32,000 nucleotides of DNA from Thermodesulfobacterium commune DSM 2178 (lineage in GTDB: Bacteria; Desulfobacterota; Thermodesulfobacteria; Thermodesulfobacteriales; Thermodesulfobacteriaceae): the NCBI RefSeq assembly GCF_000734015.1, contig NZ_CP008796.1:1320001-1352000 (forward strand), in the 5' to 3' direction. This document shows, in pieces, positions 1 to 17,039 of the stretch; position 1 is the first letter of the stretch; each line of letters opens with the position of its first letter. Position numbers and translations under genes: made by a program. Under the pieces are notes generated by a model. That model ran no database searches and had not been told where the DNA came from. It saw only the letters and a list, made by a program, of their open reading frames with translations.

Positions 1-63
1 AAAAAACATAGAGCTTATGCGTGGCTACTGCTCTGAGCTTAGGCTTATCCTTGAGAGTTTGCA

Positions 64-1371
64 ATGGAAGGACAATGGGACAAAGAAGGAAACGAAATAG
101 TAGAGAAACTCTACAAACTTCTTTATCCTTCTCTTGGTTCTTCTTTAAGAGATGCCTTAGCAGATATTCTGCGTAAAGCAACATATTTTATAAGCTTTGA
201 TGATTTAACTCGCTACATTTTAATTACCCTTGAAGAAAAATTTCAGCTTCCTGAAAAAGTTAAGTTTGCACTTAAGCTTGAGCTTGAAAAGATTTATAAA
301 GAGACTCAAGCTAAGGCACTTTCTGAGGTTGGGATAATTTTTAAACCTGAGCTTTCCATACCAGATTTTAGAGCTATTTCATACGCAGAAAAGCTTCATG
401 ATTTTTATCTTGGGAAATTTTTCAGAGGAGATAGAGAAATCCGGCTAAGAATTGTTAAATGGTTCTCAAAATATTATCTTGAGGAAGGAAACCCAATTGG
501 GCGTGGTCAGGCTGGTATAAGAGAGTTTCTTGATAGGTTTGGGGAATACATACAACCTCAAACAGAATGGAAGGCAAGACAAATCATAGATACTTCAGTT
601 AATTTTTTGCGTAATTCTGCAAGAATTCGTGCTATGCAAAAAGCAAGGATTAAACGCTATAGATGGGATGCAGTGGGGGATAGGCTTACATGCAAGACTT
701 GCAGGAGTTTTGATGGAAGAACATGGGAAGTAACAGAAGCGGTAAGGATCCTTGATGCTATTGAGAGTTCAGAGGACCCAAGAGCTATTGTAGATTATAA
801 GCCCTTTGTTACTACTCCTTATAAAGGACCATCTTCTCAAGCTCCCTCCCGATTACCGCCTCTTCATCCTCATTGTAGGTGTAGAATAGTTGCGGAGATA
901 GAAGAAAAAGAGATACCAGTAACCATAGAGAGACCAGCATTTGCAAAAGATAATCCTATTCAAAGAGACTTAGAGGATGAATATAGAGCTTTAAGCCCTA
1001 AGGAGCTTGAAAATAAAATTAAAGCTCATCTTGGAAGTGATTGGTTCAGACCAGTTAAAGGTGAAAAAGGAATAAATGCTTATAAATCAGCAAAAAAAGA
1101 AGCAGAGAGGCATTTTTTAAAACACGGGCATGAATTTGGTTTTAAAACCCCTGAAGAATATTATCACTCAGCCTATGAGGTGATAAAAAAGCCTGACGAA
1201 GTATACATTGAAAGGGTTAAAGATAAAACCTTTTACATTTTTCGAAAAGGTGATAAAGTAGTAATATCAAGTGATGATGATCTTGCAATAAAAACTTATT
1301 TTAAGTTGAATAAGCCATTTGAAACCTTTTTAAAAGAGAGGAAAAGAGATGGACTTATCAAGGTTCTCTGA
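64..1371 (+). CDS. Phage head morphogenesis protein, Mu gpF / SPP1 gp7 family, with a ~150-aa C-terminal extension (toxin-like module candidate)
   Basis: 435-aa ORF. The core ends with the MuF-family signature RLPPLHPHCRCRIV (HPHCRCR = nt 865-885). It lies next to head genes. Residues ~283-435 extend beyond the family core and contain ERHFLKHGHEFG...KTYFKL. Confidence 0.8.
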   Translation: MEGQWDKEGNEIVEKLYKLLYPSLGSSLRDALADILRKATYFISFDDLTRYILITLEEKFQLPEKVKFALKLELEKIYKETQAKALSEVGIIFKPELSIPDFRAISYAEKLHDFYLGKFFRGDREIRLRIVKWFSKYYLEEGNPIGRGQAGIREFLDRFGEYIQPQTEWKARQIIDTSVNFLRNSARIRAMQKARIKRYRWDAVGDRLTCKTCRSFDGRTWEVTEAVRILDAIESSEDPRAIVDYKPFVTTPYKGPSSQAPSRLPPLHPHCRCRIVAEIEEKEIPVTIERPAFAKDNPIQRDLEDEYRALSPKELENKIKAHLGSDWFRPVKGEKGINAYKSAKKEAERHFLKHGHEFGFKTPEEYYHSAYEVIKKPDEVYIERVKDKTFYIFRKGDKVVISSDDDLAIKTYFKLNKPFETFLKERKRDGLIKVL

Positions 1372-1699
1372 TAAAGAATTAATTGAAGAATGGGCATTTA
1401 GTTTAGCATCTCAAGAAGCTATAGAAACTTTTTTTGATGATTATTCAGCAGAAGTAACCTTACCCTTTCGCACTGAAATCCATAAAAGAGGTCTTGACAA
1501 CCACCCAAAAGTTATAGAAGCAGATAAAAAGCTAATTCAATATGCTTTAAAAGAAAAGCCTTATCCTCCTGTTATAACCGATAATTATGAGCCACCTTTA
1601 GAATACTGGTGGTGGCACATAGATAAAATTGGAGAAAAAACCTATCCAGCTGAGCTACTTCCTGAGCCCCTCAGAGAACTTTATTTACAAGAATTTTAA
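1349..1699 (+). CDS. Hypothetical small acidic protein; candidate cognate (immunity-like) partner of the MuF C-terminal module
   Basis: 116-aa ORF whose ATG overlaps the MuF 3' end by 23 nt, with a purine-rich GAGAGGAAAAGAG upstream. I recognise no family. The functional call rests on position only. Confidence 0.5.
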   Translation: MDLSRFSDKELIEEWAFSLASQEAIETFFDDYSAEVTLPFRTEIHKRGLDNHPKVIEADKKLIQYALKEKPYPPVITDNYEPPLEYWWWHIDKIGEKTYPAELLPEPLRELYLQEF

Positions 1700-1741
1700 A
1701 AAGCCTTTTATTTTGGCTTTAAAGCCCCTCTTTTTAAGGGG
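1699..1741 (+). terminator. Two weak hairpins after the MuF block (possible terminator)
   Basis: AAAGCC (1700-1705) pairs with GGCTTT (1715-1720), and CCCCT (1725-1729) pairs with AGGGG (1737-1741). The stems are short and the trailing T-tract is poor. Confidence 0.25.
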
Positions 1742-1767
1742 GTAAGTATTATACCCTTACCCCCTTC

Positions 1768-1886
1768 GTTTACGAGCGTTTACGCATCGTTTACCTTGCG
1801 TTTACTGGCATCAATTCTTATTTAGAAGGAATTGAGGTAAACGAATGTCCGTTTACTTTGTTTATTTCTTGTTTACGAGCGTTTAC
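1768..1886 (+). repeat. Phased GTTTAC array: 4 + 4 direct copies flanking one inverted copy
   Basis: GTTTAC at 1768, 1778, 1789 and 1800. Inverted GTAAAC at 1837-1842. GTTTAC at 1851, GTTTAT at 1860, GTTTAC at 1871 and 1881. Spacing is 9-11 bp. The 16-mer GTTTACGAGCGTTTAC is exact at 1768-1783 and 1871-1886. Confidence 0.85.
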
Positions 1887-1891
1887 AAAGA

Positions 1892-1953
1892 AATTTTTGA
1901 GCCAATTTTGAGCCTTTTTTTAAAAAGCTTAACCCTTATTAAACCCTTATTAA
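1892..1953 (+). repeat. Two further tandem pairs with 11-bp period
   Basis: TTTTGAGCC at 1895-1903 and 1906-1914. ACCCTTATTAA at 1932-1942 and 1943-1953, ending 5 nt before the 14-nt motif. Confidence 0.8.
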
Positions 1954-1958
1954 ATTCA

Positions 1959-1996
1959 GAAAATATTGCTTGTTTTTCTTTTTTAAATTGTATAAA
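1959..1996 (+). promoter_or_regulatory. Candidate late promoter, copy 1 (motif GAAAATATTGCTTG plus -10-like TATAAA)
   Basis: Exact 14-mer at 1959-1972, shared with 3420-3433 and 13487-13500. An internal TTGCTT is -35-like. TATAAA lies at 1991-1996 after a 19-nt spacer. The ATG at 2005 has no SD. Confidence 0.5.
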
Positions 1997-2004
1997 GTTG
2001 CAAT

Positions 2005-2316
2005 ATGCAAGTTATAGAACGAGATACTATAAAGAGCATTATTCAAAATATCAATATAATCCTTACCACTCCTAAAGGTTCAGATCCTCACAGACCTTTA
2101 TTTGGTTCAAATATTTGGCAATTTATAGATCAACCCTTAACTGTTATAACAAGAGGACGTATCAAGGCTGAAATTATTGAAGCAATTGAGACTTGGGAAC
2201 CACGAGTAGAGATTGAAGAAGTTTATCTTCAAAGGGATTATTCGAGCTTGCGTATAATTATAAAATATAAAATTAAAGAAACAGAAACAATACAGACGCA
2301 GGAGATAACTTTATGA
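2005..2316 (+). CDS. Baseplate wedge protein, GPW/gp25 family
   Basis: 103 aa. It carries the typical gp25/W pattern: IIQNINIILTTPKGSDPHRPLFGSNIW...AIETWEPRVEI. Confidence 0.8.
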   Translation: MQVIERDTIKSIIQNINIILTTPKGSDPHRPLFGSNIWQFIDQPLTVITRGRIKAEIIEAIETWEPRVEIEEVYLQRDYSSLRIIIKYKIKETETIQTQEITL

Positions 2317-3410
2317 TTAAGTTTGTAATAACTGACCCTTTATATTATGAGCAAGAATTGATAAAAACTTATGAAGCTTTAACTGGTAGGACCTTACAGC
2401 CTGCAGATCCTGAAAGGCTTATTATTAATCTTATTGCCTATGCTATGACTATCATTGCGATAAACATTGATGAATCGGCACGGCAGAATTTGCTTGCCTA
2501 TGCAGAGGGAGAAAAACTCGATGCCTTAGCTGAATTTTATGGAATAAAAAGACTTCAAGCAAAACCAGCACAAACAATTTTAAGATTTAGTATAGATACT
2601 CCTTTAAATTTTGATGTAATTATTCCAAAAGGAACAAGAGCTACTCCAGATGGAAACCTTATGTTTGCAACAATAGAAGAAGCAAAAATTCCTGCAGGGC
2701 AACTTTTTGTTGATGTTCAAGCTGAATGCGAAACTCCCGGACTAATCGGAAATGGTTATCAAATTGGACAGATTAAGCAACTTGTAGACCCAATACCTTA
2801 TATAACATCGGTTTCTAATATCACAATGAGTATGTATGGAGCAGATGTTGAAGACGATGAGAGGTTTCGTGAAAGGGTCAGAGTTTCAATTGAAAGATTC
2901 TCAAATACTGGCTCAAGACAAGCTTATGAATTTTGGACAAAAACTGTCCATCAAGATATAGAAGATGTAAGTGTTTATTCTTCTTCGCCGGGAATAGTTA
3001 ATGTGGTTTTTATTTTAAAAGATGGAGCTTTGCCAGATACAACAATGATAGAGCTTGTAAGAAATTTCCTGTCAGATGAAAAGGTAAGACCTTTAACCGA
3101 TAAAGTTATAGTATCTTCTCCTGAAGTTATTGAATATGATATAAGCTTAACTTATTATATAAATCGCAAAGATGAAGCAAAAATTCGGTTCATTCAAAAT
3201 GAAGTAGAAAAAGCGGTGCAAGATTTTGTGCTCTGGACCAAGATAAAAATCGGAAGAGATATATTGCCAGAGGAGCTTATTCGCAGAGTAAAAGAAGCTG
3301 GTGCCTATAGGATTGATTTAAGCTCCCCAACCTATCAAAAGCTTGAAATCAATCAAGTTGCTCATGCAAAAAACATCACTATCACTTATGGTGGTCTCAT
3401 AGAAGATTAA
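2313..3410 (+). CDS. Baseplate J-like protein (P2 gpJ / Mu gp47 family)
   Basis: 365 aa. Its start overlaps the W stop by 4 nt. Size, position after W and sequence character fit the Baseplate_J family. Confidence 0.7.
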   Translation: MIKFVITDPLYYEQELIKTYEALTGRTLQPADPERLIINLIAYAMTIIAINIDESARQNLLAYAEGEKLDALAEFYGIKRLQAKPAQTILRFSIDTPLNFDVIIPKGTRATPDGNLMFATIEEAKIPAGQLFVDVQAECETPGLIGNGYQIGQIKQLVDPIPYITSVSNITMSMYGADVEDDERFRERVRVSIERFSNTGSRQAYEFWTKTVHQDIEDVSVYSSSPGIVNVVFILKDGALPDTTMIELVRNFLSDEKVRPLTDKVIVSSPEVIEYDISLTYYINRKDEAKIRFIQNEVEKAVQDFVLWTKIKIGRDILPEELIRRVKEAGAYRIDLSSPTYQKLEINQVAHAKNITITYGGLIED

Positions 3411-3419
3411 TTCTTTTTT

Positions 3420-3456
3420 GAAAATATTGCTTGCTTCTTTTTTTATAAGGCATAAT
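3420..3456 (+). promoter_or_regulatory. Candidate late promoter, copy 2
   Basis: Exact 14-mer at 3420-3433. TTGCTT lies at 3427-3432, followed by an 18-nt spacer and CATAAT at 3451-3456. The ATG at 3465 has no SD. Confidence 0.55.
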
Positions 3457-3464
3457 CTATTGCT

Positions 3465-4160
3465 ATGATGGATATAAGACTATCTTTTCAGTATAGCTCG
3501 TTGAGAGAGACAGAAGAATATGTTGAATTTGATGTTATTGCAATAACAGCTTCAGTTATAAATAGACCTTTTGGGAAAATTGAATTTCCTGAAGAGGTCT
3601 TAAAAGCTTCAGCACATACCTTGATTGGGAAACCCTTATTAATTGATCTTAGATATTCAGTTGAAGCTATAGTTGGAACTGTGGTTGATGCTAAATATTC
3701 AGAAGAAAAGAAAGGAATTGTAGCAACAGTCAAGATACCAAAAGCGGGTCATGAGAAATTAATTGGTTTAATCAAGATGGAACCTTCGCCAATCAAAAAT
3801 GTTTCAGTAGGAGTAGTAGTAGAAACTGAAGACAAAAATGGATTGCAAAGAGTAATAAAAGCTGAATTTAAAGAGTTATCTTTAGTGATAGAAGGAGCTG
3901 ACCCTAATGCTACAAGACTTAGCTCTCAGGATACCTCTCATTGGTGGGATGATCCAGATCTAAGACAAAAGGCTCCACGTGATTATTTTCTTGACCCATC
4001 ATCTCGCAGATATCCATATAAGACATGGGAAGGGGAAATTTCTTGTGAAAGATTAAAGGCTGCAATGAGTTTAGCTGGGTTACATGGACATAGACAAATA
4101 TATGATAGGGCAAAAGCCCTATATGAAAGACATTGTAAAAAGGAGGGTGCAAATGATTGA
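3465..4160 (+). CDS. Prohead protease-like / scaffold-associated protein (HK97 S78-like layout, non-canonical active site)
   Basis: 231 aa. The pattern GKPLLIDLRYS..IVGTV..KKGIVATVKI...NVSVGV...ELSLVIEGADPNA parallels the S78 prohead protease layout. It lies upstream of the scaffold and capsid genes. Confidence 0.5.
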   Translation: MMDIRLSFQYSSLRETEEYVEFDVIAITASVINRPFGKIEFPEEVLKASAHTLIGKPLLIDLRYSVEAIVGTVVDAKYSEEKKGIVATVKIPKAGHEKLIGLIKMEPSPIKNVSVGVVVETEDKNGLQRVIKAEFKELSLVIEGADPNATRLSSQDTSHWWDDPDLRQKAPRDYFLDPSSRRYPYKTWEGEISCERLKAAMSLAGLHGHRQIYDRAKALYERHCKKEGAND

Positions 4161-4575
4161 AAAATTTACTAAAGAAGTTGTAGAAGTAATGTCAAAAGAA
4201 GAATTGCAAGAAGCTGTCTTAACTCTTCAGCTTAAACTTGAAACTGCAGAAAAGGAAATTGAAAGGCTAAAAGTTGAAGCAGAAATTGGAAAGAAATATC
4301 TTGAATACTTAAGAGCTGAAGCAAAAAGGCTAATCAATTTAGTTCATAAAGAATCTCCACTTTTAAAACTTGTTGATAATGCTGATGTAGATACTTTAAA
4401 GCAGATAATTGATGATTTCAGTAAAAAGGCAAAAGAAATATATAAGCCATCTTCTACTTTTGCTACTGATACACAAAAAGAACCTCTTCAACTTACAAAA
4501 GAAGATTTAATGAAGATGAGTTATAAAGACCTTCTTAAATTAGCTGAAACTTTTAAAACTAAGGAGTTAGCTTAA
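4153..4575 (+). CDS. Scaffolding protein (coiled-coil)
   Basis: I chose the ATG at 4153 because AAGGAGGG lies 5 nt upstream; the track start at 4084 would overlap the previous gene by 77 nt. The sequence is E/K/L-rich with heptad character and sits directly before the capsid region. Confidence 0.55.
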   Translation: MIEKFTKEVVEVMSKEELQEAVLTLQLKLETAEKEIERLKVEAEIGKKYLEYLRAEAKRLINLVHKESPLLKLVDNADVDTLKQIIDDFSKKAKEIYKPSSTFATDTQKEPLQLTKEDLMKMSYKDLLKLAETFKTKELA

Positions 4576-4838
4576 TGAAAGAGGAAAAATTTCTTTTAAG
4601 AGGGGAGCTTGAAGAAATAAAAGATAGACTTTCTGTTCTTTATTATGAATTAAAAGGGAAAACAGCTATTTTTTATCAAAAGGCTTATGACCTTACTAAT
4701 ATTGGAATTGTTACTTATCAAGATGAAGTAAGTGAGATTACTAAATTAATTGAGGAAATAGTAAGTTTAAAGAAGGAAATTAAAGCCCTTGAAGAGAGGG
4801 CTGAATATTTAAAAAGAAAACTTAAGGAGGTGCAATAA
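4575..4838 (+). CDS. Hypothetical coiled-coil head-module protein
   Basis: 87 aa. AAGGAG SD upstream. The ATG overlaps the previous stop, and its own stop overlaps the capsid ATG. Confidence 0.5.
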   Translation: MKEEKFLLRGELEEIKDRLSVLYYELKGKTAIFYQKAYDLTNIGIVTYQDEVSEITKLIEEIVSLKKEIKALEERAEYLKRKLKEVQ

Positions 4839-5737
4839 TGCCAGTAACAGGTGCAACCTTACCAGAACTTTTTCCTCTCTATTATGAGAGGAAACTTTTG
4901 GAGTATATAAAAGCTAATTTAGTTGCAACAAAGTATGGGCAAAAGTTTTCTATGCCTGTTCATTCTGGAAGGACTGCGGTGTGGACAAGGTTTCAGCCTT
5001 TGAATCCAGTAACAACTCCGATTACCTTTCAGCCTACTCCTACAACTGGAGCAAGCATGGCAACTCAGCAGGTTCAGGCAACTATAGAAGAATACGCAAA
5101 CTACATTGAACTTGATGAGTTTACCGATATCACAAGCTTTGTCCCCCTTGTTGATCAGGCAACTGATTTACTTTCTTATAATGCTCAAATGTCTCTTGAT
5201 GCAATAGCGATGGCTGAACTAACAAGTGGGACAAATGTTTTATATGCAGGTGGTGTTTCTGGAAGGTCAGCTTTAGATGGCACAAAAAAGCTATCTAAAT
5301 CTGATATTAGAAAAGCTATCAATATCCTTAAAAGAAATAATATTCCACCTTTCCCAGATGGTTATTATGTAGTGCTAATACATCCTGACAAAATGCTTGA
5401 CCTTTTTACCGATACCGAATTAATCCAGCTTGCTATTACCTCTAAAGATATTTTTGAAAAAGGAGTCGTTGGTCAATATGGGGGAGCAAAGTTTGTAGAA
5501 TCTACTACTTTACCTATTTTAACAGGTGCTGGTGGTGGTTCTCCAGTCGCAGATGTCTATCAAACTGTTGTTCTTGGTATGAACGCTTATGGAGTAGTTG
5601 ATATTGATGGTAAAAGCGTTCAGATGGTCTTTACCAATGTTGATAAACTTGGAAGAGTCAAAACGATTGGATGGAAAGCATATTTTGCTTGTAAAAGATT
5701 ATATGAGCCGGCTATTGTAAGAATAGAATCAAACTAA
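4838..5737 (+). CDS. Major capsid protein (HK97 fold; N4-gp56-like family)
   Basis: 299 aa with an AAGGAGG SD. The N-terminus MPVTGATLPELFPLYYERKLLEY...GRTAVWTRF and the size are typical of this capsid family. It lies after the scaffold gene. Confidence 0.75.
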   Translation: MPVTGATLPELFPLYYERKLLEYIKANLVATKYGQKFSMPVHSGRTAVWTRFQPLNPVTTPITFQPTPTTGASMATQQVQATIEEYANYIELDEFTDITSFVPLVDQATDLLSYNAQMSLDAIAMAELTSGTNVLYAGGVSGRSALDGTKKLSKSDIRKAINILKRNNIPPFPDGYYVVLIHPDKMLDLFTDTELIQLAITSKDIFEKGVVGQYGGAKFVESTTLPILTGAGGGSPVADVYQTVVLGMNAYGVVDIDGKSVQMVFTNVDKLGRVKTIGWKAYFACKRLYEPAIVRIESN

Positions 5738-5750
5738 GCGAGGTGAAAAT

Positions 5751-5930
5751 ATGAAAGTATTAATAAAGCAAGACACAACTATATGGGTAAATGGAAAACC
5801 CTATGAATTTAAAAAAGGGATACAAGAAGTAGATGATGATATAGCGATTATTCTTATTGAGTCTAAGAATGCTGAAAAGCAGGAGGAAACCGATGCCAAG
5901 AAAACCAAAAAATCCGAAGCCCAAACCTAA
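5751..5930 (+). CDS. Small hypothetical protein (59 aa) missing from the ORF track
   Basis: ATG at 5751 preceded by GAGGTG. It translates to MKVLIKQDTTIWVNGKPYEFKKGIQEVDDDIAIILIESKNAEKQEETDAKKTKKSEAQT, with the stop at 5928-5930. It fills the gap between the capsid and connector genes on the operon strand. Confidence 0.5.
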   Translation: MKVLIKQDTTIWVNGKPYEFKKGIQEVDDDIAIILIESKNAEKQEETDAKKTKKSEAQT

Positions 5931-5933
5931 GAA

Positions 5934-6263
5934 ATGGTAACAATTGAGGAAGTAAAAAGTTTTTTGCAAGTAGCAGGGGCAGACTTTGATGATACAAAAA
6001 TTGCTAATGCCCTTGAAAGGGCGTTAGCAAGGGCAAAAAAACTTTTAAAAGTAGATATCTTGCCAGAAACTGCCGAGATAAAACAAGCCTTAATATTACT
6101 TGCGGTTGCTGAACTGGCAACAGAAATAAATCTTTATTACAGAGGGAAAGAAAATGTAATGATTTTACGAACAAAGGATGTAGTTGCTGAAGCTGAAAGA
6201 CTTCTTGGATTAATGCCAGAAAAGGAGCCTTTGAAGTGGGTTTCAATAAAGACAGATTCTTAG
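5934..6263 (+). CDS. Head-tail connector protein (gp6-like, Phage_connect_1 type)
   Basis: 109 aa. The N-terminus TIEEVKSFLQV..ADFDDTKIANALERALARAKKLL matches the typical gp6-like pattern. Confidence 0.65.
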   Translation: MVTIEEVKSFLQVAGADFDDTKIANALERALARAKKLLKVDILPETAEIKQALILLAVAELATEINLYYRGKENVMILRTKDVVAEAERLLGLMPEKEPLKWVSIKTDS

Positions 6264-6469
6264 CCTTAAATATTGAAATACTAAAATTTATGTTAAATGA
6301 GGCTTTTCAAAAAAGAAAACATGTTAAGTGGGATTTTCTTTATCGGGAATTTTCGGAATATTCAAAAGAGGAGATAGATTTCTCTATTCGCTATCTTAAA
6401 GACAAAGGTTATTTAATTGATTTTGAGATAACCGCTAAAGGAGTAGATGAAGTTTTGAAATGGATATAA
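6236..6469 (+). CDS. Hypothetical protein (possibly a small winged-helix-like protein)
   Basis: 77 aa. GTG start at 6236 with AAGGAG 9 nt upstream. The C-terminus YLKDKGYLIDFEITAKG resembles a wHTH, but only weakly. Confidence 0.4.
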   Translation: MGFNKDRFLALNIEILKFMLNEAFQKRKHVKWDFLYREFSEYSKEEIDFSIRYLKDKGYLIDFEITAKGVDEVLKWI

Positions 6470-6879
6470 AAGAATTTGAAGCATACATTAAAGAATTACC
6501 GGTTAAGCTCAATAAAGCAGTAGTGCAATCGTTACATCAGGCAGCACAGGAAACAGAATCAAGGCTTTCAAGAATTTTTAAATCGGAGGGAAGGTCAGAA
6601 GGGGTTGAGTGGTCTCCTTTGAAAGAGGCTTATCTTAAATGGAAAATCAAGAAAGGTTTTTCAGAGAAAAAATTGCATAAAACTGCAACATTAGCCCAAA
6701 GCTTTAACTCAATCGTAAACGAAACTTCAGCAGTTGTCGGGACACCTGTTCCTTATTCTGTTTATCATGAATTTGGGACAAGAAAGATGCCAGCTCGACC
6801 ATTCATGGAACCAGTTTTTAATACAATGGTTAAAAGACTTGAAAACATTTTTAACAAAAACTTAGCAGAGGTGTTTTAA
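6460..6879 (+). CDS. HK97 gp10-family head-tail joining / neck protein
   Basis: 139 aa. It carries the family hallmark YHEFGTRKMPARPFMEP. Confidence 0.7.
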   Translation: MDIKEFEAYIKELPVKLNKAVVQSLHQAAQETESRLSRIFKSEGRSEGVEWSPLKEAYLKWKIKKGFSEKKLHKTATLAQSFNSIVNETSAVVGTPVPYSVYHEFGTRKMPARPFMEPVFNTMVKRLENIFNKNLAEVF

Positions 6880-7359
6880 ATGCTCATAGAATTTGAAGAA
6901 GCAATTTTGCAAAGGTTAAAAGAAGAAGGAATAAGTAATGTTCAGGGTTGGTCTGGTAAGGCAGAAGAATTATTTATGAAGCCCAAAACCTATCCTGCAG
7001 TTCGTTATGTTTTTGAAGGTCTTGACTTGCAAGAAACTCTTGCTCCAAACATCTATAATAGCATAATACGGGGTTCTCTTATAGTCTTTTTTCAAAGTTT
7101 AAAAGAAAAAGGGCAAGGAGCTTATCCAATTCTTGAAACCATTTTAAATGCTCTTATGTGGCAAGAATTAAATGGTTATATGGTTGAGATAAAAAAGATA
7201 GAACTTCTTTTCCATGAGAGCATAGATTTTGCCTATCAAGTGAGACTTGAAGCTTATGGTAAATATATTGTGCCTTTTGAGGAAAAAGAGATATTAACAA
7301 CAAGAATTACAACCTATGAGGGAGAAGAATTATCAACAGATGTTAAAAAGGAGGGCTAA
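6880..7359 (+). CDS. Hypothetical neck / tail-completion protein (position of Mu gp37-like protein)
   Basis: 159 aa. The ATG is adjacent to the previous stop. The functional call is by synteny, two genes upstream of sheath. Confidence 0.4.
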   Translation: MLIEFEEAILQRLKEEGISNVQGWSGKAEELFMKPKTYPAVRYVFEGLDLQETLAPNIYNSIIRGSLIVFFQSLKEKGQGAYPILETILNALMWQELNGYMVEIKKIELLFHESIDFAYQVRLEAYGKYIVPFEEKEILTTRITTYEGEELSTDVKKEG

Positions 7360-7362
7360 GAT

Positions 7363-7557
7363 ATGAGATATAGAGTAAAACTAAGCTATCCTACTATTTT
7401 AATGATCGGGCAAGAAGAGTATCGGCTCTTTCCGGGTCAGGAGGTTGAACTTCCTGAATCCGCCGAGGTGGTTAAGACTTACGAGGGGCTTGGCTACCTT
7501 GAGCCTTTGCCAACAAAACCTAAAACCACCAAAAAGGAGGTAAGCGATGCCAGCTAA
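7363..7557 (+). CDS. Small hypothetical protein (position of FluMu gp38-like protein)
   Basis: 64 aa with an AAGGAGGG SD. It lies immediately upstream of the sheath gene and overlaps it. K/T-rich tail. Confidence 0.45.
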   Translation: MRYRVKLSYPTILMIGQEEYRLFPGQEVELPESAEVVKTYEGLGYLEPLPTKPKTTKKEVSDAS

Positions 7558-8812
7558 TTACTTGCATGGCGTTGAAACCATAGAAATAGTAAAGGGACCA
7601 ATCCCGGTCAGGGAAGTAAAATCGGCGGTCATCTTCTTGGTCGGGACAGCTCCGGTGCATCTAACTAAGCCCGCAGGTGTCTCCGAAGCTGACTGGTATG
7701 CCCAGACGATTAACAACCCCGTTTTAGTCCTGAGAAGGGAGGACGGCATAACCTACTTCGGCGATGCCACTCCGGGCTACACCATCCCCTATGCACTTGA
7801 TGCCATTTTTGATCACGGAGGCTCAACCATCATCGTGGTTAATGTCTTTGACCCAAGAAGGCATAAAGATGCAAGCGGAAACCCTGACCCCTCAACCGTT
7901 ATCCAAGCTGACATCATCGGCACATACGACCCGACAACCGGCAAACGCTCAGGACTAAAAGTAATCGACGAGCTATACAGCCGGTTTGGCTTCACCGCAA
8001 AGCTAATCCTTTGCCCGGTTTATTGCGAGTCTCCGGGTGTTATGGCAGAGATGATAGCCCTTTGCGAAACTCATCGTGCTTTAGCTTTAATTGACGCCCC
8101 AGCTGGCTTGACCCCTCAGCAAGTAATCAACGCTCGTGGAGCAGGCGGTCAGCTTAACACTTCTGCTTACAGGGCGGTTATCTGCTACCCCCACCTTAAA
8201 GTCTACGACACCGCAACCAACTCTGAACGCCTTGAACCTTTCAGCCAGCGCTTAGCGGGAGTTATAGCCAAAGTAGACCACGAGGAGGGATACTGGTATT
8301 CTCCATCCAACCATGAGATACTCGGCATAATCGGAGTAGAGCGCCCCATCACCTGCGCCATAAACGACCCAAACACCGAAGCAAACATCTTGAACGAAAA
8401 CGGCATAGTCACGGTCTTTAACAGCTTTGGAACAGGCTACAGGGTTTGGGGCAACCGCTCTGCCGCCTGGCCAACTAAATCCGACCCGAAAAACTTTATC
8501 TCAGTCCGCAGAACCGCAGACATCATCGCTGAAAGCATAGAGTATGCAACTTTGCAGTTTCTGGATAAGCCCATCACTGTGGCTATCGACGGGGTGCTTA
8601 GCATGGTCAATGCTTTTATACGCACCTTAATAGGCAGAGGTGCCCTCGTTGACGGCAAATGCTACTTTCTCAAAGACAAAAACCCAGAGACCAACCTTGC
8701 AAACGGACACCTTACCTTTACTTACGAGATAATGCCACCCACTCCAGCGGAACGCATAACCTTTGAGCAGGTGATAAACATAGAACTACTTAAAAAATTA
8801 GTAGGAGGTTAG
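7547..8812 (+). CDS. Contractile tail sheath protein
   Basis: 421 aa with an AAGGAGG SD. The N-terminus YLHGVETIEI..GPIPVREVKSAVIFLVGTAP is typical of Mu gpL / P2 FI sheaths. The tube gene follows. Confidence 0.8.
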   Translation: MPANYLHGVETIEIVKGPIPVREVKSAVIFLVGTAPVHLTKPAGVSEADWYAQTINNPVLVLRREDGITYFGDATPGYTIPYALDAIFDHGGSTIIVVNVFDPRRHKDASGNPDPSTVIQADIIGTYDPTTGKRSGLKVIDELYSRFGFTAKLILCPVYCESPGVMAEMIALCETHRALALIDAPAGLTPQQVINARGAGGQLNTSAYRAVICYPHLKVYDTATNSERLEPFSQRLAGVIAKVDHEEGYWYSPSNHEILGIIGVERPITCAINDPNTEANILNENGIVTVFNSFGTGYRVWGNRSAAWPTKSDPKNFISVRRTADIIAESIEYATLQFLDKPITVAIDGVLSMVNAFIRTLIGRGALVDGKCYFLKDKNPETNLANGHLTFTYEIMPPTPAERITFEQVINIELLKKLVGG

Positions 8813-8816
8813 AGCT

Positions 8817-9335
8817 ATGGCTATTGAAATCAGCAAGGTATTTAATGCAAGAGTATACATAGATGGCACAGATTTTATTGGGAAGGCTGAAGAAGTAGAC
8901 CTCCCCAAAATCAAATTCAAGTTTGCAGATACAAAAGCACTTGGTATTTATGCAGATAGCGAGCTACCAACAGGACTTGATAAGCTTGAAGCAAAAATAA
9001 AATTTAATTCAGTTTATCCTGAATTTATAGCGCTTGCCTCTGACCCTTTTACTGCAAGAACTGTTATCATTAGAGCTCCATACCAAGTTTGGGCTCAACA
9101 AGGCGTAATAAAGACTGCCCCACTAAGGGCAGAGCTAAGAGGTTTCTTCAAAGAATCAGATAGTGGCAAACTTAAAAAAGCAGACTCAGCAGAAGCTGAA
9201 GCAACTATGTCTGTTATCTATTATAAGCTTGAAATAGATGGACAGGAAATCATAGAAATAGATGTGCTAAATAATATTTATAAGATAAAAGGCGAAGATA
9301 AGCTAAGAGATTATACTCAAGCGATAGGAGGTTAA
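8817..9335 (+). CDS. Tail tube protein (P2 FII / Mu gpM-like)
   Basis: 172 aa with an AGGAGG SD. The pattern NARVYIDGTDFIGKAEEVDLPKIKFK...LGIYADSELPTGLDKLEAKIKF matches the major tube protein pattern. Confidence 0.75.
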   Translation: MAIEISKVFNARVYIDGTDFIGKAEEVDLPKIKFKFADTKALGIYADSELPTGLDKLEAKIKFNSVYPEFIALASDPFTARTVIIRAPYQVWAQQGVIKTAPLRAELRGFFKESDSGKLKKADSAEAEATMSVIYYKLEIDGQEIIEIDVLNNIYKIKGEDKLRDYTQAIGG

Positions 9336-9339
9336 ACAA

Positions 9340-9606
9340 ATGGCTGAGAAAACACAAGCTAAAGAGATTATACTTTCTGATGGACGCAAAGCTGTCATAA
9401 AAGATGGTAAAGGAAGGGACCTTTTTGAAGCAATGAGACTTGCATCTGAACCTGGAGAAATTTCAAAGATGCTTTTAGTTAGACTTGTTGAGATAGATGG
9501 TAAACCTATAACTGAAGATGATATAGATGAATTACCTCTTTCTGATGCTGTAAAGCTTCTTGATGCAATGAGTGATTTACTCCCTTTCACCCGAACTCAG
9601 AAATAA
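9340..9606 (+). CDS. Tail assembly chaperone (P2 gpE / lambda gpG analogue), zero-frame product
   Basis: 88 aa with an AGGAGG SD. It lies between the tube and tape measure genes. The C-terminal ITEDDIDELPLSDAVKLLDAMSDLL is typical of this chaperone family. Confidence 0.7.
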   Translation: MAEKTQAKEIILSDGRKAVIKDGKGRDLFEAMRLASEPGEISKMLLVRLVEIDGKPITEDDIDELPLSDAVKLLDAMSDLLPFTRTQK

Positions 9607-9731
9607 TTTTAAGTTTAATATATCATGGCTTTAGTTATCATGACCTGAAAGAAATGAGTATTGGTGAGATTTTATTTTGGGCTAAAGAATTAGGAAAAGA
9701 CACTTGTCAAGAGAATTGTGTCTCCTTATAA
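9576..9731 (+). pseudogene. -1 frame extension of the tail assembly chaperone (E'/T-like); 3' end displaced by the IS insertion
   Basis: The -1 frame reads ..HPNSEIILSLIYHGFSYHDLKEMSIGEILFWAKELGKD, then runs into the IS and stops at 9729-9731. The likely original tail YILLPRKILRKN-TGA lies at 11024-11062. Confidence 0.55.
9582..9588 (+). promoter_or_regulatory. -1 programmed ribosomal frameshift slippery heptamer C CCT TTC
   Basis: The X XXY YYZ heptamer is in register with the chaperone frame (codons CCT at 9583 and TTC at 9586). The -1 frame is open from 9576. Confidence 0.6.
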
Positions 9732-11023
9732 AATCTCTTTACAAACATTTGCCTCAATTCGTATAAAGCAGACTTAATTAAAGGAAGTGGTTTTTGCCAT
9801 CTCGTTTTCTGAATCCGACTTACTGTTATGTATATCGCAACCTCTGCTGTCTTGATTGATTGAAAATATCCCCCTGTATTTACCCTTATCAGCTCTATCC
9901 TGCTATTTATATTCTCAACCACATTCGTCGTGTATATATACCTCCTCACCCCCTCAGGATATTTCTTATAAACAAAATAATGCTCCTTCTTTTTCAAAAG
10001 TCCCTTTATATAAGCTGGATACTTCTTCTCATAACTCTTACATAATTCCTCAAATCTAATTAAGGCCCTCTCATACTCCTCTATCCTCTTTATAATGCTT
10101 AACTCCTCATAAAATTTTTTAGCATCCTGCTTAGACATGTTCCTGTTGATGTTCCTTTGCATGTGTACAAAACAAAGCTGATGATCTGTCTCAGGAAAAA
10201 GGGCTTTTATGGCTTGAGCAAGGCCAGGAAAATCATCACTCACTATTACCATAACCCTCTTAACTCCCCTCTTTATCAAATCATTAAGTATCTGGAGCCA
10301 GTCCTCCTTCGTCTCTGAACCAAAATAAATGTAATAAGAAAGTAAATTTTTTCTTCCCTCCATATCTATTCCGATGATATTATAAATAACTGCTTTTCTG
10401 ATTCTGTTGGCTTCGGTATCTTTTATCTGAGTATGATAAGCGTCTATAAACATAGCAAACAAATTTTCTGGCAATTCTTTGGTTTTTAATTCTTTGGCTT
10501 GGTTATACAATTCTTCTTTAATTTCTTCTATTTGTTCTGGAGAGTAGGGAAGTTTCATAGATTGCAAGAGGGCTTTGATTTTATTGGGGGAGTAGCTTTG
10601 GAGAACGAGGTTAAGGATAAAGTCCTGGAAAGATTCATCAGCTTTTTGCCATTCAGGAGGAAGAATAGCAGGTCTGAATTCAGATTTTCTATCTCTTGGG
10701 ACAGAGATACCAAGGTTACCTAAGAAACAGGCAAGTTGTCTTTCATAGTAACCATTAGCTTTATTATCAATACTATCTCTAAGGAATATTTCTCTTTCTT
10801 TTTTCATGAGAGCGTTTAAGAGGAGTGCAGCAGCCATTTTGATACCCTCTTTTGATTCAATTTTTGAGATTTCACTTAAAACTTTTTCTAAATCTAAGTC
10901 TAAGTTTTTCATTTTACAGACCTCCTGGTTAGTTTAGTCTTTTAGGTTTTATGTTATCATTAATTTAAAAAATATTAAAAATTTTTATTATGCCTCTAAA
11001 ATATTTTATTAAAAGACACAATT
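9704..11023 (-). mobile_element. IS256-family insertion sequence (boundaries +/- ~10 bp)
   Basis: Single transposase ORF. Imperfect terminal inverted repeats lie at 9714-9737 and 11000-11023 (19/24 match, with the outer 10 bp AATTGTGTCT perfect). The size of about 1.31 kb is typical of the family. Confidence 0.8.
9707..10912 (-). CDS. IS256-family (mutator-type) transposase
   Basis: 401 aa with an AGGAGG SD. Family pattern: VSDDFPGLAQAIKALFPETDHQLCFVHMQRN...YTTNVVENINSRI. Confidence 0.9.
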   Translation of the reverse strand: MKNLDLDLEKVLSEISKIESKEGIKMAAALLLNALMKKEREIFLRDSIDNKANGYYERQLACFLGNLGISVPRDRKSEFRPAILPPEWQKADESFQDFILNLVLQSYSPNKIKALLQSMKLPYSPEQIEEIKEELYNQAKELKTKELPENLFAMFIDAYHTQIKDTEANRIRKAVIYNIIGIDMEGRKNLLSYYIYFGSETKEDWLQILNDLIKRGVKRVMVIVSDDFPGLAQAIKALFPETDHQLCFVHMQRNINRNMSKQDAKKFYEELSIIKRIEEYERALIRFEELCKSYEKKYPAYIKGLLKKKEHYFVYKKYPEGVRRYIYTTNVVENINSRIELIRVNTGGYFQSIKTAEVAIYITVSRIQKTRWQKPLPLIKSALYELRQMFVKRFYKETQFS

Positions 11024-11068
11024 TATATTCTACTCCCTAGGAAAATTTTACGAAAAAATTGAACAATA

Positions 11069-13486
11069 ATGGAAAAGATATTTCAGCTTGCTATACTTTT
11101 TAAAACCATAGATCAAGCAACCCGTCCTATTCGGGAGATTCAGAAAGCAACACAAGCTTTACAAGAGACAGTAGAAAAAACTGCTTCAAAGTTTGCACAG
11201 TTTAAAGAAAAAATAGAAGGATTTGAAAAGAAGGCTCTCTCTATAGAAGGTTTAGTTTCTACAACTGCATGGGTTGGTGCTTCAAAAACTATTCTTGGTT
11301 CCTTTATGGAGCTTGAAGATGCATCATTGAGGCTTAAATCAACTTTTATGGAATCAGGGGGCGTTGTCCCAGAAGTTTTTACCAAAATAGATGAAGAGGC
11401 AAAAAAACTTGGTGCAGAATTACCTGGAACTACTGCAGATTTCTATCGTCTTGCTGCCGTTATGAGACAGCTTGGTGTTGAAGAAGATATTTTGGCAAGT
11501 GGTGGTCTTAGAGCAGCTGCCTATCTTGGAGCTGTATTAAATATCCCTTATGAAGTGGCTGGAGAACATGTCGCTAAATATAGACAAGCATTAGGAATAG
11601 TAGGTAAGGATCTTATACAATTTATTGATCTTATTCAAAGACTGGGTCATCTTGGTGTAAAACCAGGTGAGATGGCTTATGCCTTTTCAAAATTATCTGG
11701 AACTTTAAAACTTTTAGGCTGGCAAGGGCTTGAGTTTGCAAAAGAGCTTTCTCCTATTATTGCAAGATTTATTCAATTGGGTATGTCAGGAGAAACAGTA
11801 GGAACAAATTTAAGTAGGATTTTTACACAAATGTTACATCCTAAAAAATTACATGAATTTACTTCAAATCTTGCTCAATTTGGTATCAAATTAGAGTTGA
11901 TAGATGAAAAAACAGGCAAACTAAAAGGACCAGCTCAACTTATTGCTGAATTCAATAAGATTAAAGAAGCGTATGAAAAAGGTATAATCTCACAAAAGCA
12001 GCTTTATGAAATTGCTAGCAAATTAGCCGGAGAGGAAGGTGAAGACTTACATATGTTAATGACAATTATTCTTGAAGGCGCAGAGAGCTATAACAAAATG
12101 TCTGATGCAATACGAAAACAAGCTGATTTACAACAGCGTATAGGTGTAATAACGAATTCTCTTCGTAACGTGTGGGAAGCTTTCACAGGGACATTGCAAA
12201 ATGTCTTTGCTATTGTTGGCTCAACTCTCGCTCCAACATTAAAGAAGATTGCTGATTTTCTAAACGATCTTGCTGATAACATAGGACAATTTCTTGAAAA
12301 GCATAAAACTCTTGCAAGCATTATAGGCTGGTCAATTGGAGGTTTTGCCCTTTTCACTGTAGGCATAATGGCAACTGCAGGAGCTATTGCTGCAATCATG
12401 TTCCCACTCAAGACATTTATATGGATATTAGGAACATTAGGTCCATTGATGCGAGGAGCGGGTATAGCAACAGGTTTTTTCAGAAATCATTTATTACATG
12501 CTTTACCTGCAATTTGGGCAAAAATCAAAGCTTTAACTATTTTATCAGCTCAGATGGCAAGAATGGCATTTACTGGTTTAATTTCGGGGCTTAAGTCAGT
12601 TATTCTTGCAGTTAGAGCTTTAAGCATTGGGTTCTTTACATCTCCTATTGGCTGGTTTGCTCTTGGTATTATTGCTTTAATCGGCGTGGTTTATCTACTT
12701 TGGAGGCATTGGGATAAGGTTTCAAAAGCTCTATCTACCATCTGGAACTGGCTTAAATCTACATGGGAAAAAGTATCTAATGCTCTACTTACTGTCTGGA
12801 ACTTTCTTAAATCATCTTGGCAAAAAGTCCTTGAAGTCTTTATGTATATCCATCCTCTTGGTATTCTTTTTAAAGCCCTAAATAAACTCGTTCAATATGT
12901 ATTTGGATTGGACCTCTTTACTGCCGGCAAAAAAATTGTGGAGAGCCTCTGGAAGGGTATAGAAGTTCTTGCCATGAAGCCTGTTGAAGCCATGAAAAAC
13001 ATCGTCCAAAAAATAAGAAACCTTTTGCCCTTTAGCCCTGCCAAAGAAGGTCCTCTTGCAGACCTTCATAAAATCAAACTCATTGAAACCCTTGCTGAGG
13101 CAATAACTCCAGCTCCACTTATATATGCTATGACAAAAGCTGTTGAGCCAGTCAGAGCTATTACTCAGCCTTTAATTCAGCCCGTGAAACAGGTTCTTGA
13201 GCCAGTCAGAGCTATTACTCAGCCTTTAATTCAGCCCGTGAAACAGGTTCTTGAGCCAGTCAGAGCTATTACTCAGCCTTTATTTTCACCAACTTTGAGA
13301 TTGCCTGCTCCTGCAATACTTGGAGCCAGTGCAAGTCCTATAAGCATTCATGTTACGCAAAACATCACGTTTCAGCATGGTTCAATTTCTGAAAAGGAAA
13401 AAGAAGCTATAGCAATAGATTTGAAACGTGCTATAGAAAGAGTACTTGAGCAAATTAATTGGGATAAAACAAGAAGAGCATATTAA
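11069..13486 (+). CDS. Tail tape measure protein
   Basis: 805 aa, located after the chaperone. It has an alpha-helical N-terminal region, a hydrophobic glycine-rich central segment and an internal tandem repeat. Confidence 0.8.
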   Translation: MEKIFQLAILFKTIDQATRPIREIQKATQALQETVEKTASKFAQFKEKIEGFEKKALSIEGLVSTTAWVGASKTILGSFMELEDASLRLKSTFMESGGVVPEVFTKIDEEAKKLGAELPGTTADFYRLAAVMRQLGVEEDILASGGLRAAAYLGAVLNIPYEVAGEHVAKYRQALGIVGKDLIQFIDLIQRLGHLGVKPGEMAYAFSKLSGTLKLLGWQGLEFAKELSPIIARFIQLGMSGETVGTNLSRIFTQMLHPKKLHEFTSNLAQFGIKLELIDEKTGKLKGPAQLIAEFNKIKEAYEKGIISQKQLYEIASKLAGEEGEDLHMLMTIILEGAESYNKMSDAIRKQADLQQRIGVITNSLRNVWEAFTGTLQNVFAIVGSTLAPTLKKIADFLNDLADNIGQFLEKHKTLASIIGWSIGGFALFTVGIMATAGAIAAIMFPLKTFIWILGTLGPLMRGAGIATGFFRNHLLHALPAIWAKIKALTILSAQMARMAFTGLISGLKSVILAVRALSIGFFTSPIGWFALGIIALIGVVYLLWRHWDKVSKALSTIWNWLKSTWEKVSNALLTVWNFLKSSWQKVLEVFMYIHPLGILFKALNKLVQYVFGLDLFTAGKKIVESLWKGIEVLAMKPVEAMKNIVQKIRNLLPFSPAKEGPLADLHKIKLIETLAEAITPAPLIYAMTKAVEPVRAITQPLIQPVKQVLEPVRAITQPLIQPVKQVLEPVRAITQPLFSPTLRLPAPAILGASASPISIHVTQNITFQHGSISEKEKEAIAIDLKRAIERVLEQINWDKTRRAY
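13145..13282 (+). repeat. Perfect 54-bp tandem repeat (2 full copies plus 30 nt) inside the tape measure gene
   Basis: Units at 13145-13198 and 13199-13252 are identical. A third partial unit spans 13253-13282. The repeat encodes EPVRAITQPLIQPVKQVL. Confidence 0.95.
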
Positions 13487-13500
13487 GAAAATATTGCTTG
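13487..13500 (+). promoter_or_regulatory. Candidate late promoter / activator site, copy 3
   Basis: Exact 14-mer GAAAATATTGCTTG, starting 1 nt after the tape measure stop and 49 nt upstream of the SD-less ATG at 13536. The -10 element is less clear than in the other two copies. Confidence 0.45.
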
Positions 13501-13535
13501 TTTTTATTAAATCTCATTGCATACATTAAAAATGT

Positions 13536-14234
13536 ATGATAAAAGAGCTAATACAACCTTCTATAAAACTTTTAGCGCATTTAGTCGAATCTGCAGACCC
13601 TTATTTTGCAAAACTTCTTGAAGAGACTATAAAGGTTTTAATCTATAGCAGGATAGATGAACTCCCTGAAGAAGTTTTAGATACCTTAGGCTGGCAATTC
13701 CACATTGAAGGCTTTGACCAAGCCCAAACCGTTCAGGAAAAACGCAACTTAATCAAGCATGCCATCGAGCTCCACAGATACAAAGGAACACCCTACGCAG
13801 TTAAGAAGGTATTTCAAGCCCTAAACTTAGAGGCTGAGCTCTCCGAATGGTTCGACTACAACGGCGACCCATACAAGTTTAAAGTGCTCGTTAAAAACAT
13901 CATACAAGACGAAGACACATATTTGAGGCTAATCGAACTAATCAACGAATACAAAAATGTCCGCAGCTGGCTTGACGTAATCGGCTTCCATCGTGAATAC
14001 AGCCAAACCCTCTACTATGCCTTTGCCCAGAAAAACGGAAAGCATTATCAAATCGGTTTGCATACAGACACATCTGTTGAGCCTTATACCCTTTACGCCG
14101 GTCTTACCCAGAGAGTTGGAACATCTTACCAGATAGGCTTATACGAGCCCCAGACATCCGTTGAGCCTTATACCATTTACGCTGGCTCCGCCCAGAGGAT
14201 TGCAAGCTACATGGCTATATATCCAGCTAATTAG
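13536..14234 (+). CDS. Baseplate/tail protein, P2 gpI family
   Basis: 232 aa. The pattern LIQPSIKLLAHLVE...LPEEVLDTLGWQFHIEGFD...EKRNLIKHAIELHRYKGTPYAVKKVF matches the Tail_P2_I pattern. The fibre gene follows. Confidence 0.7.
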   Translation: MIKELIQPSIKLLAHLVESADPYFAKLLEETIKVLIYSRIDELPEEVLDTLGWQFHIEGFDQAQTVQEKRNLIKHAIELHRYKGTPYAVKKVFQALNLEAELSEWFDYNGDPYKFKVLVKNIIQDEDTYLRLIELINEYKNVRSWLDVIGFHREYSQTLYYAFAQKNGKHYQIGLHTDTSVEPYTLYAGLTQRVGTSYQIGLYEPQTSVEPYTIYAGSAQRIASYMAIYPAN

Positions 14235-14244
14235 GAGGTAAGGA

Positions 14245-16105: not shown

Positions 16106-16579
16106 ATGATTAACAAAGTTATCCTCATTGGGAGGCTTGGAGCAGACCCCGAGCTCCGCTTCACTCTTGACGGAAAGCCTGTAGCCACAATGCGCATTGC
16201 CACGAACGAGGTTATAAACCGTGAAGGAACCAAAGAAACTCTCACGGAATGGCATAGGGTGGTTGCCTTTGGAAGGCTTGCCGAAATCTGCGGAGAATAT
16301 TTAGAAACAGGTTCACAAATCTATGTGGAAGGCTCACTCCGCTACCGAAAGGTCCTCGATAGATCCGGCTTTACTCGTGTCATCCCTGAAATCTTTGCCG
16401 AAACAATCAAATTTTTATCCAAACCAGCTCCTAAAGATCATACTTTCTCTTACCAAGAAAGCCCTATTTCAACCCAATCTACCTCTTCAGACCTACCTCT
16501 TAGCTATTCCAGCGATGATTTTGCCACTCAAGACCCACGCTTACTCTTTAAAGATGACCTCGACGACCTACCTTTCTAG
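16106..16579 (+). CDS. ssb: Single-stranded DNA-binding protein
   Basis: 157 aa. OB-fold N-terminus VILIGRLGADPELRF...WHRVVAFGRLAE, a low-complexity linker and an acidic tip DDLDDLPF. Confidence 0.9.
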   Translation: MINKVILIGRLGADPELRFTLDGKPVATMRIATNEVINREGTKETLTEWHRVVAFGRLAEICGEYLETGSQIYVEGSLRYRKVLDRSGFTRVIPEIFAETIKFLSKPAPKDHTFSYQESPISTQSTSSDLPLSYSSDDFATQDPRLLFKDDLDDLPF

Positions 16580-16967: not shown

Positions 16968-17039
16968 CCTCAACTTTTTTCCTGGAATTTCCTCAACCAA
17001 ATTCCTGGAATTTCCTCAACTTTTTTCCTGGAATGAACA
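16968..17039 (+). repeat. Three abutting 23-bp direct repeats at the prophage terminus (candidate transposase end-binding sites / attR)
   Basis: U1 = 16968-16990, CCTCAACTTTTTTCCTGGAATTT. U2 = 16991-17013, CCTCAACCAAATTCCTGGAATTT. U3 = 17014-17036, CCTCAACTTTTTTCCTGGAATGA. ACA follows, so the bottom strand reads 5'-TGTTCATTCCAGG. Confidence 0.7.

Follow-up and report, generated by a model that had tools for sequence, protein, structure and literature searches.

The chromosome of Thermodesulfobacterium commune DSM 2178 carries, near the middle of a Mu-like transposable prophage, an array of helically phased direct repeats. The array was analyzed within a window of 32,000 bp (contig NZ_CP008796.1, positions 1,320,001 to 1,352,000 of the forward strand), and coordinates given without a contig name are those of the window. 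It lies in a 305-bp gap that is the largest non-coding stretch seen in this prophage, and the small open reading frames (ORFs) in the gap were judged implausible. The analysis showed the array to be a DNA-level cis-acting platform of eight TTTAC-centered units that face one side. Among the functions considered for this platform we favor, with a probability of roughly 0.35, an architectural or wrapping site like phage Mu's strong gyrase site (SGS).

Eight direct copies of GTTTAC or GTTTAT start at 1768, 1778, 1789, and 1800 and, in a second cluster, at 1851, 1860, 1871, and 1881. The single inverted unit, GTAAAC, occupies 1837-1842 in the core between the clusters, and arm, core, and arm measure 38 + 45 + 36 bp, or ~120 bp in all. 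A 16-mer, GTTTACGAGCGTTTAC, recurs exactly at 1768-1783 and 1871-1886 in the repeat listing. The unit under conservation is (R)TTTAC, mostly present as CGTTTAC. Recomputation on the sequence upheld all of the positions that the original prediction had given, as well as the 16-mer and the two downstream tandem pairs.

The regularity of the array exceeds what base composition produces. The window contains 9 copies of CGTTTAC where 1.3 are expected, and 0 of 100 shuffles reached 9; 7 of the 9 copies fall within 1767-1886, and the array is the top hexamer cluster of the entire 32 kb. When the gap was shuffled 2000 times with preservation of dinucleotides, no shuffle reached 7 same-strand copies or 4 successive spacings of 9-11 bp, which answers the concern, raised with the original prediction, that such phasing might be expected by chance. 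Because of this copy excess, the window-wide rank, and the shuffle results, the phased array is real and not a composition effect. All eight direct units share a single helical phase, with a resultant length of 0.94-0.95 at a period of 10.2-10.3 bp and of 0.89 at 10.4 bp (Rayleigh p ~1e-3 for a common phase of the eight units), and the clusters stay in phase across the 51-bp step over the core. The phase analysis thus confirmed two phased, iteron-like sets on one helical face around a core of ~45 bp, as had been proposed.

The close lineage of this phage comprises seven distinct sequences that are ~97% related, and across it all unit positions are retained while the spacers drift. Variable columns number 2 of 45 in the TTTAC cores versus 20 of 81 in the remainder of the array region (Fisher p = 0.003), in a comparison limited to sequences that had not been retrieved via the array. 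The array is free of indels in the seven sequences, though indels flank it on both sides, and the 51-bp inter-arm spacing (5 turns of 10.2 bp) is therefore kept. Conservation in related phages, a check set beforehand, accordingly holds for the unit positions in the close lineage. Three repeat families had originally been described in the gap; the GTTTAC units and the TTTTGAGCC pair are conserved, whereas the duplication of ACCCTTATTAA is private to the window, the copy being single in 6 of 6 relatives.

Three lineages with gpW proteins 69-75% identical have a shorter gap from which the array is absent. At this place they carry a perfect 24-bp palindrome, GTAAACTGTTTA/TAAACAGTTTAC, which is built from the same hexamer and is set in a 42-bp block without variation, whereas its flanks have diverged; GAGCC also adjoins the palindrome. 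The 24-bp palindrome had no match in IMG/VR, and positions 1-4200 of the window had no DNA similarity to GenBank phages. Farther relatives with the same gene order (lineage C and contig L121) have a gap of 55-116 bp with the late-promoter motif and no hexamer element, and in one array-less relative the promoter directly follows the stop codon of the homologue of ORF116, the gene upstream of the gap. A further ORF116 homologue, in a 1.9-Mb genome, was rejected as an additional case, being an isolated remnant beside insertion sequence (IS) fragments and having no element. These comparisons indicate that the hexamer element is functional yet lineage-specific. They also indicate that the late promoter is independent of the array, since array-less relatives retain its motif.

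The right half of the prophage falls within the window, and after it come host genes that include those for a GGDEF regulator, mreB, and gyrA. Prophage genes in the window encode MuF, gpW, gpJ, the head protease, capsid, sheath, tube, tape measure, gpI, tail fiber, and an SSB protein (16106-16579, inside the prophage). The left half was reconstructed from contigs with gpW 97-100% identical, and the prophage ends were inferred from such composite contigs. It encodes a 647-amino acid transposase (phrog_310, E 7e-38), a MuB-like ATPase (phrog_296), Gam, a GemA-like protein, a CI-like repressor with HTH_3 and Peptidase_S24 domains, and a 79-amino acid HTH_17 protein. It further contains a Mu gp27-type small terminase, large terminase, and portal, the tail genes U-X-D-V, a lysis cassette, MuF, and ORF116. 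To the left of AAGGGAATTGCA the sequence differs between two copies that come from different metagenomes, and three TTGCATnnTTTTGCAA sites lie just inside this point; at the left end (L113:117-400 and L114:66-345) the three TTGCATnnTTTTGCAA sites are followed by five TTRCAACC direct repeats. Matching inverted right-end sequences lie at ~16831-16887 of the window, in the prophage-end region 16580-16887, with TTGCAAAACTATGTAA and ATACAATTACCCT, and place the right end at ~16887. Given the transposase, the MuB-like ATPase, Gam, the variable left flanks, and the end repeats, the element is a Mu-like transposable prophage of ~30.6 kb integrated beside host genes.

The array occupies the slot that the SGS occupies in Mu. 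The Mu record is annotated, in order, with F, G, a gyrase cut site at 17879/80 (48.7% of the genome), a terminator, the late promoter P_I, and the protease I; the SGS is located in the middle of the genome, between G and I, and this central placement is needed for efficient replication. Here MuF is followed by ORF116, hairpins, the array, whose core contains a terminator-like hairpin, GAAAATATTGCTTG, gpW-gpJ, GAAAATATTGCTTG again, and the protease, so that the array comes after the F/G-type head genes, in a gap ahead of the late promoter and protease. Its distance is ~16.8 kb to the left end and ~13.7 kb to the right end (with a 1339-bp IS subtracted), which puts it 53-55% along the ~30.6 kb defined by ends from composite contigs, versus 48.7% for the Mu cut site. 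The original prediction missed this context, in which the Mu G-I gap combines a strong gyrase site, a terminator, and the late promoter P_I.

The dimensions of the array also resemble those of a gyrase site. The motif of E. coli gyrase is 130 bp long and consists of 36 bp at the center and two arms of 47 bp with a periodicity of 10.75 bp, and gyrase binds best to well-phased sequences such as the Mu SGS (PMC6379681). The right arm of the SGS, which is essential, bears repeat motifs that induce bending (PMC10052514). The array is similar in size and has a single phase, at 10.2-10.4 bp. GyrA of the host (24826-27237, minus strand) has a canonical GyrA box, QKRGGKG, at residue 524, on which basis the host probably has a true supercoiling gyrase. 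In the mechanism that we propose, TTTA supplies TpA steps at a regular period with G/C on either side, and these would make the arms bendable to one side and so allow them to wrap on a protein. At the apex of the loop formed by the prophage, the array would hold this DNA-wrapping protein, for which DNA gyrase is considered first, and this would help the distant prophage ends to synapse for replicative transposition.

Table 1. The array and the features around it
Feature	Position	Strand	Description
ORF116	1349..1699	+	Last gene of the upstream late operon; occupies the position of gene G in Mu
GC-rich hairpin	1736..1766	+	Inverted repeat with a perfect 11-bp stem, AAGGGGGTAAG / CTTACCCCCTT
Arm 1	1767..1805	+	CGTTTAC x4 at 1767, 1777, 1788, 1799; GC-rich spacers
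Core (~45 bp)	1806..1850	.	Imperfect palindrome 1812-1834 and sole inverted unit, GTAAACG, 1837-1843
Terminator-like hairpin	1833..1860	+	Terminator prediction; inverted unit with unit 5, then a T-rich run
Arm 2	1850..1886	+	CGTTTAC 1850, GTTTAT 1860, GTTTAC 1871, CGTTTAC 1880; spacers 1-2 T-rich
TTTTGAGCC x2	1895-1903 and 1906-1914	+	11-bp period; kept in the close lineage
AACCCTTATTA x2	1931-1941 and 1942-1952	+	Tandem duplication found in the window alone
Late-promoter-like region	1959..2004	+	GAAAATATTGCTTG 1959-1972, -10-like TATAAA 1991-1996, then gpW ATG at 2005
gpW (gp25-like) and gpJ baseplate genes	2005..3410	+	Pfam GPW_gp25 and Baseplate_J; served by the GAAAATATTGCTTG promoter
Mu-I-like head protease	3465-4160	+	PHROG head maturation protease

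Several observations weigh against an SGS-like wrapping site. The A/T versus G/C periodicity over 1760-1895 was not significant (p = 0.14), and the correlation with the E. coli gyrase consensus neither singled out the array in the window nor centered on the core. By arithmetic from the unit coordinates and the A/T positions of the consensus, the arms are ~7 bp closer together than in that consensus. In arm 2 the hexamers sit among spacers of which the first two are T-rich, so that the hexamer rather than an alternation of AT and GC is conserved, which suggests sequence-specific recognition. The perfect 24-bp palindrome of the relatives with 69-75% identical gpW is typical of a site for a dimeric, site-specific protein. 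Lineage C and L121 have no such element despite the same gene order, and no similar units were found in RC1, a Helicobacter prophage, or a B3-like phage. Two of the supports are themselves weak, in that centrality is approximate, the array gap being one of only a few gaps, and that the motif used for comparison across phages was defined after part of the data had been seen. Taken together, the nonsignificant A/T periodicity, the misfit to the gyrase template, the T-rich spacers of arm 2, and the palindrome of the sister lineages point to a sequence-specific protein.

A reading of the array as operator-like sites for such a protein, of winged-helix or ribbon-helix-helix type and encoded by the phage or the host, is tentative and in our estimate almost as likely as the SGS-like one. 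The protein would bind the direct repeats here head-to-tail and the palindrome of the sister lineages as dimers. It would have a local role at the late-operon junction, where it might serve as a roadblock or assist termination, insulate, or modulate the W-J promoter. This would account for a hexamer that is conserved while its spacers drift, for the retention of the arm 2 units despite T-rich spacers, and for the recurrence of the same hexamer in an invariant palindrome where the flanks of the relatives have diverged. The minus strand of the array reads GTAAA-N5/6-GTAAA, like a CpxR box. In the OmpR/PhoB family, half-sites of 6-7 bp are arranged head-to-tail at a period of 10-11 bp, and Xis, Cox, and Apl of phages lambda, P2, and 186 likewise bind direct repeats. 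In a Bacillota Mu-like prophage (L028; see below), two opposed clusters of related units 150 bp apart suggest looping and not one gyrase footprint. Among its uncharacterized small early proteins and a 144-amino acid "transcriptional regulator" (phrog_2345), the phage has potential partners for such sites.

Nevertheless, no candidate binder emerged, and no Trans_reg_C domain was detected in the phage proteins tested against Pfam. The other four late promoters work without an array, and the array ends ~75 bp upstream of the -35-like element, which also speaks against an operator. The 79-amino acid HTH_17 protein is 54% identical in an array-less lineage and is a better fit to the shared promoter motif, which we think it serves; it is unrelated to the transposase N terminus, and it was rejected as the array binder. 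ORF116 matched no Pfam or PHROG family, and its homologues, which share the motif YWWWH(I/L)D, come after MuF in all lineages, the array-less ones included. It was set aside as a binder for the lack of a domain and for its occurrence where the array is absent, in line with the earlier remark that no partner gene for a DNA-binding protein is evident beside the array. The products of the lysis cassette are holin-like, SLT-domain, and spanin-like and were discounted, though the genes are restricted to lineages with GTTTAC elements. A DUF2513 winged-helix protein was rejected since it is confined to lineage B, lineage A being without a homologue. A copy of TAAAC-NN-GTTTA near the 3' end of the portal gene was rejected as a second site, since it lies in an overlapping holin-like ORF and encodes the conserved peptide FKPVYG.

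Units similar to those of the array, which count in favor of the SGS-like reading, were noticed post hoc in other Mu-like elements. The right arm of the Mu SGS contains TTTTAAAACG, TTTAAACCG, and TTTAACGG, in which phased TpA steps are separated by 21 and 12 bp. In L028 (13540-13765), CCGTTTAA occurs twice at the MuF stop codon and TTAAACG occurs four times, at 8-12-bp spacing, just before the next head gene; 5 of the 6 CGTTTA sites of the 20-kb locus fall in the gap after MuF. Several Rhodobacterales prophages have pairs of CGTTAAAC in the corresponding gap, and CGTTWAM, a motif chosen post hoc, is enriched 3-fold after MuF (p = 1e-7). It is possible to see in these units a single device shared by Mu-like prophages of several phyla. 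According to this reading, the array would be a sequence-specific "central organizer" that merges the roles of the Mu enhancer and the SGS and is bound by a phage protein, for example through the N-terminal winged-helix domain of the transposase, and the related CGTT(T/A)A(A/C) arrays in other phyla would be the same device. We regard it as doubtful.

In Pseudomonas phage Ab30 (L127), two 13-bp palindromes, GGCACAWTGTGCC, lie directly after the G-like gene at 2250-2300, in a segment that was proposed as an SGS in a published study. At 3130-3160 of the same phage, ~120 bp before the protease gene, CGTTAAC, CGTTAGA, and CGTTAGA follow one another at 9-11-bp spacing. When IMG/VR was scanned for a pattern of three phased CGTTTAC units, 11 unrelated contigs came up, none of which is linked to this phage, and they were rejected as relatives. 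In the gut contigs L006, L008, and L010 the CGTTTAC iterons have an 11-bp period and inverted copies and stand beside VapE-like primase genes, and these are probably replication origins. Another contig has its array at the contig end, in a phage with a T7-type terminase.

A centrally placed transposition enhancer, like the internal IAS (E element) of Mu and bound by the N-terminal winged-helix domain of the transposase, is a rather unlikely identity for the array. It resembles the Mu enhancer in its plan of two clusters and a core, and in the transposase a second HTH is preceded by an N-terminal HTH_17 domain (E 6e-11). The repressor is CI-like and not of the Mu c type, so that its operator need not double as an enhancer, and the early region is without any GTTTAC cluster. 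However, the transposase had no sequence match in the PDB to any MuA structure, the core lacks a conserved IHF-like site, and the array-less lineages would have to do without an enhancer at this place. The five TTRCAACC repeats beside the left-end sites are at least as good a candidate for an enhancer or a packaging (pac) site as the array, and perhaps a better one.

The gap might instead act as RNA, in the form of a structured 3' untranslated region or an attenuator in which GUAAACG pairs with upstream CGUUUAC units or with unit 5, the latter forming the terminator. The gap does fold far better than its shuffles (z = -5.3), units 1 and 3 are perfectly complementary to the inverted copy over 9-10 nt, a terminator-like hairpin with a T-run is found in the core, and one long-range pair is altered on both sides among relatives. 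Covariation is nevertheless negligible, and no Rfam match exceeded the gathering thresholds. For a thermophilic host, as is assumed here, the AU-rich array hairpins have in silico energies of just -0.3 to -2.8 kcal/mol at 65 °C, with ~0 at 75 °C, and of the predicted structures only the GC-rich hairpin outside the array survives 65-75 °C. The nearest named relatives are Aquificota, and most Aquificota are thermophiles. The helical-turn spacing, and a palindrome that runs through the center of the 24-mer, are features of duplex DNA. An RNA mechanism is thus unlikely.

The original prediction compared the array with plasmid centromeres, origin iterons, and terminase binding arrays, all of which now appear very unlikely; the cooperative repressor array that it also named is still a serious alternative. 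A core with 4 + 4 direct repeats around it, spaced one turn apart, does recall R1 parC and P1 pac, and the CGTTTAC iterons beside VapE-like primase genes in unrelated phage contigs offer a parallel for an origin. A centromere is contradicted by the element being integrated and transposable, with variable flanks, and by the absence of ParM, ParR, ParA, and ParB from the ORFs scanned in the ~30-kb phage; no promoter was found in the array core, and the genes downstream are gpW and gpJ. Origin iterons do not accord with the lack of a replication-initiator gene, no Rep, DnaA, primase, or helicase gene having been found in the ~30-kb phage. Transposable phages replicate by transposition. As for a terminase pac or cos site, headful packaging of a Mu-like prophage must begin at an end, and a start in mid-prophage would lose the left half of the genome; the small terminase gene, moreover, is 5.7 kb upstream of the array. 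The remaining probability falls to an array that is non-functional or has some other role.

The features that accompany the array in the gap (Table 1) can be separated from it. A 14-nt conserved motif noted in the original prediction, GAAAATATTGCTTG, is promoter-like in sequence. Besides the copy before gpW, it occurs in the window at 3420-3433 and 13487-13500 (a 13-mer of it is exact at 1960, 3421, and 13488), and in the 97% relative L023 at 513, 2995, 9958, 11419, and 19930. The motif is always 44-48 nt upstream of an ATG, at each late operon, and as it precedes every late operon we take it to be a late-promoter element outside the array proper. It persists in lineages down to 63% gpW identity, including those that have no array. 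Late mRNAs are probably leaderless, to judge from the -10-like element, which ends only ~8-13 nt before the ATG.

The upstream late operon runs from terminase through portal, lysis genes, and MuF to ORF116. The GC-rich hairpin that follows it is the sole gap hairpin stable in silico at 65-75 °C and probably marks an operon boundary or terminator, whereas the AU-rich hairpin in the core is marginal in silico at these temperatures.

Other features of the prophage were noted in passing. Genes of the P2-type tail are scattered (window 64-15600 and L023), with U-X-D-V before the terminase, W-J between MuF/ORF116 and the protease, and I-H after the tape measure; each tail block begins with a GAAAATATTGCTTG-type promoter motif, which could have mediated the shuffling. 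The lysis cassette between portal and MuF (L023:6717-7877, L016:469-2249) encodes holin-like, SLT transglycosylase, i-spanin-like, and lipoprotein o-spanin-like proteins. An IS256-family (Transposase_mut) insertion of 1339 bp occupies 9699-11037, between a tube-proximal ORF and the tape measure gene; an overlap of ~8 bp fits a target duplication, and the insertion is missing from L023. Positions 4567-4816, which make up most of an 87-amino acid coiled-coil ORF (4575-4838), are an insertion relative to L023 and are present in L022. Just outside the prophage end, TTTTTTCCTGGAATTTCCTCAAC or a variant forms 2-3 direct repeats at 16968-17035, where the gene for the GGDEF response regulator has its 3' end.

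Mu, with its central SGS, is the classic example of DNA topology being used by a phage to bring together ends that lie 37 kb apart. Only the SGS of Mu itself and that of one close relative have been reported to promote Mu replication, and an array in the SGS-equivalent slot bears on what distant transposable phages use instead. The array is unusually regular and easily mutated, and units, phase, and core can each be altered without the others. Binding by gyrase would make it a natural "designed" wrapping site and show the principle to be ancient; binding by a specific protein would mean an alternative solution to the problem of joining the ends. Should neither apply, it would be an operator at an operon junction, of local interest only.

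The array shares partial similarity with several known systems. Like R1 parC, it has two sets of direct repeats at about one helical turn per repeat around a ~40-bp core, an arrangement that favors cooperative binding on one face. Unlike R1 parC, it is accompanied by neither parM nor parR, has no par promoter in the core, and belongs to an integrated transposable prophage rather than a plasmid. The Mu enhancer (IAS/E, operators O1-O2) is likewise built of two clusters of short protein-binding repeats with a spacer, and the transposase of the present phage has an extra N-terminal winged-helix domain. In contrast to the enhancer, which is ~1 kb from the left end of Mu, the array is ~17 kb from the left end, does not overlap repressor operators, and has no conserved IHF site. 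The boxes of OmpR/PhoB-type regulators (CpxR, GTAAA-N5-GTAAA) and the Cox, Apl, and Xis repeats present a half-site of 5-7 bp every 10-11 bp, and the minus strand of the array reads GTAAAC-N4/5-GTAAAC; the differences are that no cognate protein was found in the phage and that the sister lineages use inverted repeats.

The Mu SGS differs from the array in that its A/T tracts are loosely phased, whereas the array consists of near-perfect iterons of one hexamer whose fit to the E. coli gyrase consensus is unconvincing. In addition, sister lineages have the 24-bp palindrome instead of the array, and here the W and J genes intervene between array and protease. Both sites belong to a Mu-like prophage and occupy the gap that separates F/G-type head genes from a late promoter and the protease; the position is roughly central, though only approximately so for the array. 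The two appear comparable in length (~120-130 bp) and in the helical phasing of their arms, and in both phages a terminator-like hairpin overlaps the site.

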